This document shows, piece after piece, positions 9,046 through 13,748 of a DNA stretch of 15,331 nucleotides. A program made the translations under genes and the position numbers. This DNA comes from a virus (Duplodnaviria; Heunggongvirae; Uroviricota; Caudoviricetes): IMG/VR virus record IMGVR_UViG_2648501437_000028, one strand, 5' to 3'. The first letter of the stretch is position 1. Every line of letters starts with the position of its first letter. The notes below the pieces were generated by a model, which was given only the letters and a program-made list of their open reading frames with translations, had not been told where the DNA came from and made no database searches.

Positions 9046-10800
9046 TTATAAAAACGCGTCGCACTCGTCTGTTGTTATTGCGTTAGTCTGCGTTACTCCC
9101 TTAACTTTCCGCGTAATATATTCATGTCCGTAAACTTTCGCGGCTGGCTTCATAGCCTTGCCAAAGTCATTTACGTTTAGCGGTTTGCTCCTGCCTGCGT
9201 ACGCCATAAACGCCAGATAGACGCGGTAAAGGCTGTTTCTGGTCGTGTACTTCACTGAATCGCCACCGCCGCCCATCATCAGGCCGCGTGCTTCCTCCAG
9301 AAAATTCAGGAACTGGCAAAACTCAATAACCGGATCCGTCTGTTGCTTTATTGCCAGAGCTTCATCACCGTCACGCTGTTCCAGTAGTAAAGCCCGTGCC
9401 TTCTCAGGGTCGGTAAAGTTCGCCAGCAATCGGCGGATAATGACAGGGATTTCAGCCGCGATCTTTTCCGGTAGCTCCCTGTCTTTTTCGGCCTCACTGA
9501 CGATATTGTCGAAACGGAAAATCACGCGACGACGTGCCACACCTCCGGCCCGTTCGGTGAATATCATCGGGTTATTGTTGGTCGCCAGCACCACCGCCCT
9601 GATTACCGCCGTGAAACGCTTTTCGTATTTCGGGTTAATTTCCACGGGGTCACCGCCCGTGATTTTCTTGATGCCCGTTCCTTCGCCTGTATATTTCGGC
9701 TGGTCAGCCAGGACGATAAGACGACTCCCGACAACCTGCGCACGTCCACCAGCATCATCAAGCGATGTCATTTCAGCGCTTACCGTGTTCTGTTTCCCTG
9801 CCAGAAGGCTGGCTATGTGTGTGAATGTACTTTTACCGCTCCCGCCGTCTCCGGTGGCCTCAATAAACATCTGCCAGTCGTACCGGTTCGCCATAATCAT
9901 GTACAGCGCGGCACATATACGCATCATCTTGCGCGGGTCTTTTCCGGCTGCGTGCTCAAGCCATTTATGAAAGTTTGGCGCGTTATCGCGGATGTTCTCC
10001 CCTGGTGCTGGTGGCGTGTACTCAATGCCGTTGTGCGTGGTGATCCAGTTCTCCGGCGTGTGCGGGGAAAATTCCCCCGTTTTCAGGTCAAGCGCACCAT
10101 TGGCGAACGGCAACAAATCGCCGGACGGCTCGCCCATTGGTTCGGCAATAACTTTTAACGCTTCCACGGCGTTATTGATTACGCGCTTGCTGAAAGTGGC
10201 CCTGTGCTCTGAATAGATCGCCACCATTTCGCGGCTAAGTTCCATTGTGCTGACCGGACACCATACCCCGCCGCGCCATACGTGAACGATTTCACTTTCA
10301 GGATGTACGCAAACGCCATCAAAGCGATCGGCAAGCAGCTGCGCGCGCTCACTGTCCGCCATCTGCGAAAGTTGCGCCTTTTGCTTTACCGGAAGCTCAA
10401 TGACCAGACCATCAGAAAGATTCTGGCGCTCACGGGCCAGATATTCGCGCCAGTTCTCCACCTTCTGACCGTGCATACCATCAGGGTAAAAATTTGCATC
10501 CTGTACGCCTGCCGCCGCCAGCTTCTGACCAATCGCCTTTATCATTACTGGCGCAAGATATCCGGCCCTGAATATGCGCACGGATTTTCTGCCTTCCGGC
10601 ACAATTTGCAGCTTATCCAGTTCGGATAACTGCTGCTCCCCAAGCCACACAGGAGGCTCATTATCTCCGGCCATACGCGCGTCATGTTCCTGCCATTGTT
10701 TTGCGTGTGACCAGGCATCACTACCCGCAAAAATAATGACTTCTGTTTCTTTGTGTTTTATGCCGCGTGACTGCTGTTTTACGTTCGGTGCCAGTTTCAT
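9046..10800 (-). CDS. Primase/helicase, P4-alpha-like (TOPRIM-like N-terminus plus SF3/D5-type NTPase)
   Basis: 584 aa; Walker A GDGGSGKST, Walker B-like LIVLADQ; N-terminal acidic primase-like segment; ATGA overlap with the upstream gene. Confidence 0.8.
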   Translation of the reverse strand: MKLAPNVKQQSRGIKHKETEVIIFAGSDAWSHAKQWQEHDARMAGDNEPPVWLGEQQLSELDKLQIVPEGRKSVRIFRAGYLAPVMIKAIGQKLAAAGVQDANFYPDGMHGQKVENWREYLARERQNLSDGLVIELPVKQKAQLSQMADSERAQLLADRFDGVCVHPESEIVHVWRGGVWCPVSTMELSREMVAIYSEHRATFSKRVINNAVEALKVIAEPMGEPSGDLLPFANGALDLKTGEFSPHTPENWITTHNGIEYTPPAPGENIRDNAPNFHKWLEHAAGKDPRKMMRICAALYMIMANRYDWQMFIEATGDGGSGKSTFTHIASLLAGKQNTVSAEMTSLDDAGGRAQVVGSRLIVLADQPKYTGEGTGIKKITGGDPVEINPKYEKRFTAVIRAVVLATNNNPMIFTERAGGVARRRVIFRFDNIVSEAEKDRELPEKIAAEIPVIIRRLLANFTDPEKARALLLEQRDGDEALAIKQQTDPVIEFCQFLNFLEEARGLMMGGGGDSVKYTTRNSLYRVYLAFMAYAGRSKPLNVNDFGKAMKPAAKVYGHEYITRKVKGVTQTNAITTDECDAFL

Positions 10801-11096
10801 TTTTTACCCCTGAATCCGTTAATCATGGTTTTCAGCTTCTGGATGTTTGCCCGTGCCCTGGCGTTGCTGGTGGACACGTTATGCGGCGCGGTCTGTACCA
10901 GAGAAAAATCACGCCGGAACTGATAAACAGGCATCACGCAATCATATTCGTAACCTTCACGGCGGTAGGTTACGCGCCGTTCTTCCACGCCCTTAATCAT
11001 TACCGTGCCGCCGTACTGGTCGCGGTAAATATCGCCGCGCGTAAATTTAGGGTGAGTGTTGCCACTGGCAGTTAAGCCAGAATATTTAAGTTTCAT
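10797..11096 (-). CDS. Hypothetical 99-aa protein, translationally coupled to the primase
   Basis: ORF track; GGAGA Shine-Dalgarno before the ATG at 11096. Confidence 0.5.
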   Translation of the reverse strand: MKLKYSGLTASGNTHPKFTRGDIYRDQYGGTVMIKGVEERRVTYRREGYEYDCVMPVYQFRRDFSLVQTAPHNVSTSNARARANIQKLKTMINGFRGKK

Positions 11097-11918: not shown

Positions 11919-12351
11919 GGTGCACCTCCTGCACATCAGCCATGATAATTTTTCCGGCCTTATCCAGTGCCTGATCGGCTTTTAGCTGCACAAATGCTAA
12001 ATGGAAGATGCATTCTGATTCTCTGGCTGCGTGTTTATGCGCCCTGTCAGCAATAACAGAAATATCAATAAGCGCGTGCATCAGCGTAGTGAGCGCGGCG
12101 GCGGCTGCGTCCGGTGTGGTTTTATTGCACATGTACCCCTCCGCATTTTTTTCGTTAGAAATAAGCGTTCTTCTTTCCTGTTCATCGCTCAGGAATACGC
12201 AGACCTCACCGCTAAGGCGTTTAAGTAAGCCGATGATTGCCCCTGATTCGCTGTCGGTCATCATGCTAGGGTAATCCTCTGCCAGTGCGCAAATAACTTC
12301 GATTTGGTGGGCGCGTTCTGCTGCCTGTTGTAGTGTGATTTCCTGGCTCAT
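11911..12351 (-). CDS. Hypothetical 146-aa protein
   Basis: ORF track; ATGA overlap with the upstream 66-aa ORF. Confidence 0.5.
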   Translation of the reverse strand: MSQEITLQQAAERAHQIEVICALAEDYPSMMTDSESGAIIGLLKRLSGEVCVFLSDEQERRTLISNEKNAEGYMCNKTTPDAAAAALTTLMHALIDISVIADRAHKHAARESECIFHLAFVQLKADQALDKAGKIIMADVQEVHHA

Positions 12352-12548
12352 AAGCCTACCCCCTGACGAATACGGGCAGCAAATACCATCACGCAGCCAG
12401 CCGGAGATTGCTGGCGTGCTTCCTGTTCGCTGGTGGCCTCAATGGTAATCACGCGCGGTTGTGCCGTGCTCAGGGCGATAAAACGCCAGATGTATTTATT
12501 CAGGTTGTGCGAGTCCCGCCCTTGCGGGTGTGTGGTATGATTTCTCAT
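12348..12548 (-). CDS. Hypothetical 66-aa protein, first gene of the leftward operon
   Basis: ATG at 12548 preceded by GAGGTAG; it is the 3' part of the 384-aa track ORF, whose upstream extension I reject. Confidence 0.45.
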   Translation of the reverse strand: MRNHTTHPQGRDSHNLNKYIWRFIALSTAQPRVITIEATSEQEARQQSPAGCVMVFAARIRQGVGL

Positions 12549-12583
12549 AGCTACCTCGATACTCTCGTTATCGTTGGTGGTTA

Positions 12584-12724
12584 GAAGCCCCGTTACTGCT
12601 CCAACAGTGCGGGGCTTCGTCGTTTCAATTGCTGAATTGCATGTATCAGCACTTGTGGTATTCACATTACATTTAGGTGAATACCATTTCAAGTCTTTTT
12701 TGGTATTCACTTTTGTATTACACT
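12584..12724. promoter_or_regulatory. Divergent control region: long hairpin GAAGCCCCG...CGGGGCTTC (12584-12618) and operator-like repeats TGGTATTCAC-N11-GTGAATACCA (12656-12686), TGGTATTCAC (12701-12710), GTATTACAC (12715-12723)
   Basis: Read directly; lies between the start of the leftward operon (12548) and the start of the RHH gene (12754). Confidence 0.5.
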
Positions 12725-12753
12725 GCATCCCGTTATTAATGGGAGGTGCAAAC

Positions 12754-13059
12754 ATGTCCAGGAGTTCTGTTAACAATAAGTCACAGCAACTGAATGCCAG
12801 ATTTCCACATGAAGTAGTGAGTGGCATTGAGGCATCCCTACAGTCAGGGGAAACTAAAGCGAATTTTATAGTTACGGCTGTACGCGGTGAGATCGCCCGG
12901 CGCCAGGCAGAAGGAAGTGGAGAAAATCCCCTGGTTTCTTCGCTCGATGCACTGGCGCAGGTGGAAAAACTCGGAATCAAAGCCGCCGAGGAGATCGGGC
13001 AGCTCGTCACTGTCGCACGTGAAGAACTCCAGCGCCGCAAGACCAAAGAACCAGAGTAA
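12754..13059 (+). CDS. Ribbon-helix-helix (CopG/Arc/MetJ-like) DNA-binding protein; candidate repressor of the switch
   Basis: 101 aa from the ATG at 12754 (GGGAGGTG Shine-Dalgarno); N-terminal NARFPHEVVSGIEASLQSGETKANFIVTAVRGEIARR fits a beta-strand/helix/helix pattern; the track ORF starts further upstream at 12574. Confidence 0.55.
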   Translation: MSRSSVNNKSQQLNARFPHEVVSGIEASLQSGETKANFIVTAVRGEIARRQAEGSGENPLVSSLDALAQVEKLGIKAAEEIGQLVTVAREELQRRKTKEPE

Positions 13060-13116
13060 TCACCATCAGCGCCGTGGTGTAAGGTATTACGGCGCATTGC
13101 TATGCAGGACAACACA

Positions 13117-13290
13117 ATGACCGATAAAGAATTGACCAAAACATTATCACCGGCACGGAAAAGACGGCGCAGAAAGATAGAGCATGAATCAGAAAGATTC
13201 GCGCCATGTGCTTTTGCCCTTGAGCAATTCCTTAAAGAGTACAGGGAAAAGCGCTCATTGCAGGTATGGCAACGAACTGAACCAGACTGA
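13117..13290 (+). CDS. Small, highly basic 57-aa protein
   Basis: ATG at 13117 with AGGAC upstream (track ORF starts at 13102); contains the RKRRRRK run; function unknown. Confidence 0.4.
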   Translation: MTDKELTKTLSPARKRRRRKIEHESERFAPCAFALEQFLKEYREKRSLQVWQRTEPD

Positions 13291-13385
13291 TTGCATTGCC
13301 CACCAGCCTGATAACGGCTATCATCCCCGTGCTTATGTTTGGGATCACACACACAAACGGCGCAGCGGGTTATCTGTTCAGAAAG

Positions 13386-13413
13386 GCGGCTCCATTTCGG
13401 GGCCGCTTTTTTT
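13386..13413 (+). terminator. Intrinsic terminator, possibly bidirectional, between the convergent plus-strand pair and alpA
   Basis: GCGGCTCC-ATTTC-GGGGCCGC stem (one G-U pair) followed by TTTTTTT on the plus strand; A-run on the other side. Confidence 0.6.
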
Positions 13414-13559
13414 ATACCTGAAAAACCCCAATTTTGTTGTTTTTCAGTTTCACCAGGGCGAACGAATCCCCGCCCACGTTCTGGCGTATATTCAATCTTC
13501 ATGGTTATAGCTCTGTGTTCAGATGATTGATGTGTGGCGGCTGCGTGCCGCCAGCGTGA

Positions 13560-13748
13560 TTAATGAACTGCCTTGCAGCTATCCTTCCAGGCCAGAACCT
13601 CGGATAAAGACCAGCCAACGGAACGACCGCCAAGTTTACGACGTGATGGGAATTGTCCGGCCTTTTCCAGGCGGTAGCGACACGTACGGCTAAGGCCGGT
13701 TAGTTTTTCGCATTCTTTTTCACGTATAAACCGATCAGTGCTTAACAC
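13560..13748 (-). CDS. alpA: AlpA/Vis-family (excisionase-like) regulator
   Basis: LTGLSRTCRYRLEKAGQFPSRRKLGGRSVGWSLSEVLAWK matches the AlpA-type winged-HTH pattern. I prefer the GTG start at 13748 (AGGGGGG 5 nt upstream, ~62 aa) over the track TTG start at 13829. Confidence 0.7.
   Translation of the reverse strand: MLSTDRFIREKECEKLTGLSRTCRYRLEKAGQFPSRRKLGGRSVGWSLSEVLAWKDSCKAVH

Follow-up and report, generated by a model that had tools for sequence, protein, structure and literature searches.

A putative repressor switch nested in a proposed immunity region of a phage satellite

We analyzed a 15,331-nucleotide stretch of viral DNA (Caudoviricetes; IMG/VR record IMGVR_UViG_2648501437_000028), referred to below as the window. 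By its Pfam hits, the window is a capsid-forming PICI (cf-PICI) satellite, with int, alpA, and a primase, its own capsid, protease, portal, connectors, HNH, TerS, and TerL, and no tail genes (definition from 10.1101/2022.09.08.507074). Leftward genes encode TerL, TerS, HNH, head-tail connector, head-completion protein, portal, prohead protease, major capsid protein, PerC, and SSB, followed by a P4-type primase, a DUF4222 protein, and an Icd-like protein. The genes alpA and int lie at the right end and are also leftward. An Escherichia coli O157:H7 chromosome carries the same stretch at 99% identity next to roxA/pepT, which is the attachment site of EcCIEDL933 and EcCICFT073, and the int-alpA side is 95% identical to that of EcCIEDL933. 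The DUF4222 protein (10797-11096, - strand) carries an RGD motif (KFTRGDIY) and therefore resembles RgdR, the OI-51 activator of LEE/type III secretion in EHEC (PMC10877973).

We focused on the region between the icd-like gene and a small gene on the opposite strand. A first-pass annotation of positions 12549 to 12753 had described an inverted repeat, a third direct copy, a degenerate fourth copy, and a 9+4 bp hairpin immediately before the ribosome-binding site of the leftward operon. It read them as a repressor-controlled bistable switch, comparable to SaPI Stl or a lambda-type immunity region, run by a ribbon-helix-helix (RHH) protein and distinct from the usual description of E. coli PICIs as AlpA activated. 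The features of the region are as follows.

12348-12548, - strand, icd/kil-like gene (66 amino acids), first cistron of the leftward operon
12533-12541, + strand, candidate promoter of an antisense RNA (extended -10, TGgTATGAT)
12548-12626, + strand, predicted cis-antisense RNA of about 80 nt, with stem-loop 1 at 12549-12583 (anti-SD in its apical part), a terminator hairpin at 12584-12618, and a T-rich tail at 12619-12626
12633-12643, - strand, weak fifth site, one period left of site A (the 10-mer TGAATTGCAT matches 8 of 10)
12655-12665, + strand, putative operator site A, GTGGTATTCAC, covering the -10 edge and predicted start of the leftward promoter PL
12664-12692, - strand, predicted leftward promoter PL, with -35 TTGAAA (12692-12687), a 17-nt spacer, -10 TAATGT (12669-12664), and a predicted start near 12657
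12677-12687, - strand, putative operator site B (ATGGTATTCAC on the - strand), in the PL spacer next to the -35
12700-12710, + strand, putative operator site C, TTGGTATTCAC, in the spacer of the predicted rightward promoter PR
12719-12724, + strand, predicted -10 (TACACT) of PR, the regulator's own promoter, with no clear -35, only a T-tract, and a predicted start near 12731
12722-12732, - strand, degenerate site D, at the position where relatives have a fourth site, overlapping the PR -10 and predicted start
12754-13059, + strand, RHH-type regulator gene (predicted), 101 amino acids, YlcI/YnfO family (long form), predicted beta-strand SQQLNARFP
13117-13290, + strand, second small rightward gene (57 amino acids)
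13382-13417, + strand, terminator-like hairpin (GGCGGC...GCCGC followed by TTTTTTT), inferred from sequence alone to end the rightward two-gene unit
12348-13559, - strand, eta-like stop-free frame, starting right after the alpA stop codon, with its first ATG at 13502, running through antisense orf2, antisense RHH, and the operators and continuing in frame into icd
13560-13748, - strand, alpA (AlpA-family regulator/excisionase; Pfam Phage_AlpA, 1.5e-16), with coordinates taken from the PGAP annotation of the 99%-identical locus

The repeats and the hairpin are present as the first-pass annotation had described them, with some corrections of detail. Exact TGGTATTCAC lies at 12656-12665 (+), 12677-12686 (-), and 12701-12710 (+), with no other exact copy in the window. 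A chance origin of the repeats was considered and rejected, as the best repeat family in the 113 nt upstream of the rightward gene was reached by 0 of 100 dinucleotide shuffles. In the hairpin, GAAGCCCCG (12584-12592) pairs with CGGGGCTTC (12610-12618), plus an inner ACTG/CAGT. The architecture of related loci places the degenerate fourth site at 12722-12732 (ACTGCATCCCG, inverted), whereas the candidate fourth copy named earlier, TTGTATTACAC (about 12714-12724), aligns with the -10 region of the rightward promoter in relatives. The hairpin is not immediately next to the ribosome-binding site, since a second small conserved hairpin (12557-12573) lies between it and the SD at 12554-12557.

The rightward gene product matches the NCBIfam YlcI_YnfO_N model (NF041551) at 2e-16 and 59.8 bits against a cutoff of 30, and PGAP gives the same name in identical loci. 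Evidence that it is an RHH protein is indirect. The Pfam PSK_trans_fac score is 17.8 bits against a threshold of 28.3, and Pfam RHH hits, likewise below threshold, occur in 18 of 24 relatives. An hhalign comparison, run with a manually entered P22 Arc sequence, places residues 8 to 30 on Arc residues 5 to 27 (E 0.004 but a probability of 8.5%), with SQQLNARFPHEV on Arc's PQFNLRWPREV, so that Q12/N14/R16 correspond to Arc Q9/N11/R13. The AlphaFold monomer shows two helices after a low-confidence N-terminal segment that leaves the strand region disordered, and structure searches returned nothing informative. No helix-turn-helix family hit was found. The C-terminal half is a long predicted helix. 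Relative to a 59-amino-acid short form, the long form has an insertion of about 42 residues (residues 45 to 86; 12886-13010), which weakly matches the helix-hairpin-helix motif of Hef/XPF (E 0.005) and is predicted by AlphaFold as one long helix. A tblastn search of the regulator against 50,697 phage records gave no match, and the Icd-like protein gave one hit. The second small rightward gene encodes a basic protein with no family hit, identical to a PGAP-annotated protein of EcCICFT073. Together with the regulator gene, it looks like a two-gene unit convergent with alpA.

To test the operator idea, we compared about 100 related loci. Relatives of the regulator (about 50 to 99% identical, Enterobacterales) differ mainly in the N-terminal strand. 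Loci were collected by a scan of genome contigs (10 loci), look-ups of nine homologues, and an IMG/VR scan seeded only with the Icd-like protein. The synteny is constant: int, alpA, an optional Bro/AntA gene, the small gene on the opposite strand, about 190 to 217 nt, icd-like, and then DUF4222 and a primase. The upstream regions align into one architecture. A de novo search in 19 loci found sites at about -99, -76, -54, and -31 from the regulator ATG in alternating orientation, and several relatives also have a fifth near -120; for most loci, 0 to 3 of 100 shuffles reached the observed family. Each allele has its own 11-bp GTG-N5-CAC site, repeated 3 to 5 times at fixed positions with a period of about 22 bp. 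The site center tracks residues 12 and 14 of the predicted DNA-contacting strand, whereas Arg16 and the outer GTG/CAC are invariant. The pairings of residues 12, 14, and 16 with sites are as follows.

QNR, GTG[GC][TG]ATTCAC, in 101- and 59-amino-acid forms
STR, GTGTAAG[AC]CAC, in both forms
LTR, GTGTGTTTCAT, in E. coli and in Xenorhabdus/Photorhabdus
QSR, GTGTGATTYA
AKR, GTGTGGCCCAC
KER, GTGGCTGACAC
KQR, GTGGATTCCAC

This covariation is partly confounded by the physical linkage of operator and gene start, and the loci are related, so that cell counts overstate the number of independent events. Even so, the concerted change of all sites within each locus is what a shared binding protein predicts. 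The repeats are very likely the binding sites of the small Arc-like protein. It is very unlikely that the repeats instead bind AlpA, the primase/Rep as iterons, or a helper-phage protein, with the small gene unrelated to them. Phased repeats with a period of about 22 bp can also be iterons, and binding by the RHH protein is inferred from sequence alone. However, the repeats change together with the small gene, while alpA stays 95 to 99% identical and the primase type varies independently, and the sites sit on predicted promoter elements.

On the - strand, the best sigma-70 match in the 140 nt upstream of the small gene lies at the same place in 13 of 16 loci; in the window, this match is PL. 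The predicted rightward -10 (TATACT/TATAAT in aligned relatives) lies between sites C and D, and the two-hexamer scan gave no consistent result for this strand. The geometry indicates repression of both promoters, although this is a prediction: a strict sigma-70 and terminator consensus scan of 12300-13200 found no promoter (and missed the hairpin, with its long loop and weak tail), PL in the window matches only 8 of 12 positions, and PR has no recognizable -35. As site D is degenerate here, self-repression may be weak.

The hairpin, in contrast, is not supported as a leader hairpin of the leftward mRNA. The first 107 nt of a query spanning 12520-12790 match 1,331 E. coli genomes, whereas the repeat part reaches at least 80% coverage in only 44 genomes. 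A profile of the leader found it in nearly all icd loci, giving 61 unique sequences. In the stem of the hairpin, non-Watson-Crick cells are 95 G·T against 1 A·C, and G·T pairs as G·U only in + strand RNA. The mean MFE is -34.7 (+) against -23.2 (-), with the + strand more stable in 59 of 59 sequences, and RNAalifold energies are -13.75 against -1.66. On 24 diverse sequences, RNAalifold found 19 pairs, 10 of them with compensatory changes. In total, 96.2% of cells are paired, which 0 of 500 shuffles reached (slid controls gave 39 to 48%). On the + strand, the stem is followed by a T-rich run, although the tail in the window is T-poor (GTCGTTTC). A TAnnnT hexamer lies 4 to 10 nt left of the icd start codon and, as judged by eye rather than by a scripted count, is present in all 61 unique leaders, although the encoded icd residues vary (H-T, S-I, S-N, D-T). 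We therefore read the hairpin as the terminator of a predicted cis-antisense RNA of about 80 nt over the icd/kil translation start. A small hairpin (CCCGC-CCTT-GCGGG, 12514-12527) also lies inside the first codons of icd, and other lineages have a different hairpin at the same place (CACAAAGGCCGTTTGTG), suggesting a further conserved structure just upstream of the candidate antisense promoter.

Nor is the region simple intergenic DNA. A - strand frame, in phase with alpA, is stop-free from the alpA stop codon (13560-13562) to the icd stop (12348). In 14 of 20 loci, the distance between the two start codons is 187, 190, 193, 196, 205, 208, or 217 nt, always 1 mod 3, with no stops; the per-locus chance is 0.005 to 0.06 for the spacer alone. 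Across 75 unique loci, 72 have a frame open for at least 460 nt through the operators and the small gene, ending either at the icd stop or at fixed points in the leader, including the TAA inside the conserved TCTAACC. One such open reading frame (ORF) begins with a Bro-N domain. A GC-rich hairpin (TGGCGGC-ACGCA-GCCGCCA on the - strand, 13535-13553) lies immediately after the alpA stop codon and before the first ATG. Gene callers and PGAP sometimes annotate only the long ORF (a 247-amino-acid protein in EDL933 and 428- and 495-amino-acid ORFs in two other loci), but the possibility that it is the only real gene, with the rightward ORF and the repeats as by-products of its coding sequence, appears remote. 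The two frames share wobble positions, yet replacements are fewer and more conservative in the rightward frame in 65 of 66 allele pairs (BLOSUM +0.14 against -1.04). The rightward product matches a curated family above cutoff, whereas the antisense peptide is rich in Ser, Arg, Cys, and Ala and has no family hit. Selection therefore acts on the RHH protein sequence and, in the leftward frame, only on openness.

The arrangement is not peculiar to this island. The window, EcCICFT073, and EcCIEDL933 share flanks at 95 to 99% identity but carry different regulators and different repeats at the same place. The window is 98.7% identical to CFT073 over 12061-12590 and 95.7% identical over 13029-13308, with no match in between. 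EcCICFT073 carries a 59-amino-acid YlcI/YnfO gene with GTGTGGCCCAC sites, plus the same second gene of 57 amino acids. EcCIEDL933 has an unannotated 43-amino-acid RHH-like ORF (MRISPELKEQFDKEAQSDGISLANWLKELGRTELKRRGIEPKG; about 2866-2997 on the + strand of our EcCIEDL933 locus), preceded by two AGGTGACCAC repeats and lying antisense under the annotated 247-amino-acid hypothetical protein WP_001304194; it gives only subthreshold HicB/RHH_5 hits. Most icd loci in IMG/VR show one of three small regulator types at this place, and an equivalent regulator-plus-sites cassette occurs in nearly all related E. coli satellites.

Taken together, the interpretation in the first-pass annotation is partly supported: a divergently transcribed small RHH-type protein with its own operator array over two back-to-back promoters fits the covariation and the promoter geometry, while the leader hairpin, the simple intergenic setting, and the uniqueness of the island are not supported. 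Our preferred reading, held with moderate confidence, is that 12533-12753 is the control center of a P4-like immunity region. In this view, the Arc-like protein is made from PR and binds as dimers to the phased array (A, B, and C strong; D and the fifth site weak). Sites A and B would allow it to silence PL, an internal promoter that would otherwise drive icd/kil, the RgdR-like gene, the primase, and the capsid genes, and sites C and D would allow it to limit its own expression. The antisense RNA, complementary to the icd/kil leader, SD, and start codon, would block translation of any PL transcript that escapes. When the helper phage turns on alpA, transcription would enter from the alpA side, and ribosomes would translate through the antisense regulator gene, the operators, and the antisense-RNA target, which is proposed to bypass both blocks and to interfere with regulator expression. 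The regulator core, the operators, and the terminator loop (about 12591-13028) would form an exchangeable cassette giving each satellite its own immunity specificity. Against this reading, published data show that alpA is necessary for induction and report no repressor phenotype (PMC6092414; 10.1101/2022.09.08.507074). Our sequence comparisons establish the repeats, the covariation of site and protein, the promoter geometry, the strand-specific conservation of RNA structure, the conserved open frame, and the cassette exchange, whereas binding, transcription from the three predicted promoters, repression, existence of the RNA, bypass by translation, and any bistability or derepression upon loss of the regulator are inferred.

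Two alternatives share much of this evidence but seem unlikely. In the first, as originally proposed, the RHH protein is an Stl- or CI-like master repressor whose deletion alone would cause spontaneous excision and replication, with the hairpin as a leader structure on the leftward mRNA. The operator evidence is the same and the layout resembles divergent immunity regions, but the wobble pairs work only on the + strand, int and alpA lie outside the controlled unit and have no such sites, alpA is required for induction in EcCIEDL933 and EcCICFT073, and the operon can also be reached from the alpA side through the open frame. In the second, the regulator, the antisense RNA, and icd/kil form a self-contained toxin-control or addiction module that only keeps the cell division inhibitor silent, with no part in satellite induction or immunity. 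Icd/Kil proteins such as P1 Icd and P4 Kil are toxic cell division inhibitors, a cis-antisense RNA over the ribosome-binding site of a small toxic protein is the type I toxin-antitoxin layout, and RHH proteins are common antitoxin-type autoregulators; HicB- and PSK-like hits below threshold were also seen. However, icd is the first gene of the whole replication and packaging operon, so its promoter controls all of it, cassette exchange between otherwise identical islands looks like immunity specificity, and conservation of the open frame points to read-through from alpA.

Among described systems, the P4 and P22 immunity regions are closer analogues than SaPI Stl or lambda CI. Phage P4 has the same gene order, with alpA/vis, a long ORF (eta) whose in-frame 3' end is an Icd/Kil-like gene, and primase genes, and has an internal promoter (PLE) inside the ORF, as is predicted here. 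P4 Kil hits the same NCBIfam model (phage_ICD_like) at 1.6e-21, compared with 1.4e-19 for the icd-like gene of the window. P4 eta is reported to be translated only from an upstream late promoter, which is proposed to bypass CI-RNA immunity (PMC10111431, citing Forti 1999, PMC94026). The window lacks a CI/C4/isrK RNA and seqA-type sites: Rfam gave no match at gathering score in the whole window and no credible family at E up to 10 in 12300-13700, and the leader profile is absent from P4. In their place are an antisense-strand protein gene with putative operators and a predicted cis-antisense RNA. Phage P22 immI (Mnt and Arc, Pant/Pmnt, and sar) shares with the arrangement predicted here a small Arc-like RHH repressor, divergent overlapping promoters with operators on core promoter elements, and a short antisense RNA over the ribosome-binding site of the controlled gene, and the motif QLNARFPHEV resembles Arc's QFNLRWPREV. 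However, the Rfam sar model (RF00262) matches at only 16.8 bits against a gathering score of 43 (E 3.7) and on the - strand, the controlled gene is icd/kil plus a replication and packaging operon rather than ant, the sites are 11 bp with a 22-bp period rather than one 21-bp operator, and the regulator has an extra C-terminal helical or HhH-like part. SaPI Stl and lambda CI share a divergent regulator gene facing the replication/packaging operon, with repeated operators, but they are helix-turn-helix proteins with int on the repressor side; here, the protein is RHH-like, int and alpA are co-oriented with the operon, and induction needs AlpA. Type I toxin-antitoxin loci such as SymR/symE share an RNA of about 80 nt (here only inferred) opposite the 5' end of a small toxic protein gene, covering the SD and start codon, but the target here is also the entry to a 10-kb operon and lies in an upstream frame that is proposed to be translated.

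The founding description of Gram-negative PICIs reports unidirectional transcription, AlpA as the activator, and no clear global repressor (PMC6092414), and the cf-PICI preprint mentions no repressor (10.1101/2022.09.08.507074). A paper on the Bro zone discusses eta and CI RNA but no antisense gene, and a 2026 survey lists YlcI/YnfO only as an accessory "prophage-associated protein" (PMC13612085). In the open-access literature, we found no functional description of YlcI/YnfO or DUF3950, of CopG proteins or antisense RNAs in PICIs, or of OI-51 sRNAs. A conserved, allele-specific repressor/operator cassette between alpA and the replication operon would explain how these islands stay silent, why near-identical islands differ exactly there, and how several satellites could coexist in one genome. 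A bolder reading is possible but tentative: Gram-negative PICIs and related P4-like satellites would have a dedicated immunity system that has gone unnoticed, consisting of the nested cassette and the cis-antisense RNA over icd/kil, with cassette types defining heteroimmunity groups among coresident satellites and AlpA-driven, translated read-through as the way the helper phage overrides the block. As the same predicted promoter would drive the RgdR-like gene, whose homologue regulates type III secretion in EHEC (PMC10877973), the switch may also set virulence regulator levels. The arrangement is an unusual case of three overlapping codes in about 700 bp (a protein gene, operators and promoters, and an antisense frame selected only to stay open), and the predicted residue-to-base pairing rules are directly testable and could provide orthogonal repressor/operator pairs.

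The N-terminal domain of the family is also used outside satellites. The namesake YnfO in the Qin prophage of E. coli K-12 lies in a different, lambdoid setting, divergent from nohA and next to ydfO, with no icd-like gene or leader nearby, and so gives no functional lead. Within the window, TGTGGTAT occurs both in operator site A (12654-12661) and over the candidate antisense promoter (12531-12538), but EcCICFT073 has the same promoter sequence with different operators, so this is probably coincidence. Six of the IMG/VR loci (L037, L051, L054, L056, L100, and L106 in our numbering) hold two copies of the leader element about 750 to 1100 nt apart. Where we checked, each copy has its own small regulator gene of a different specificity type, which would make them tandem switch modules in one element.
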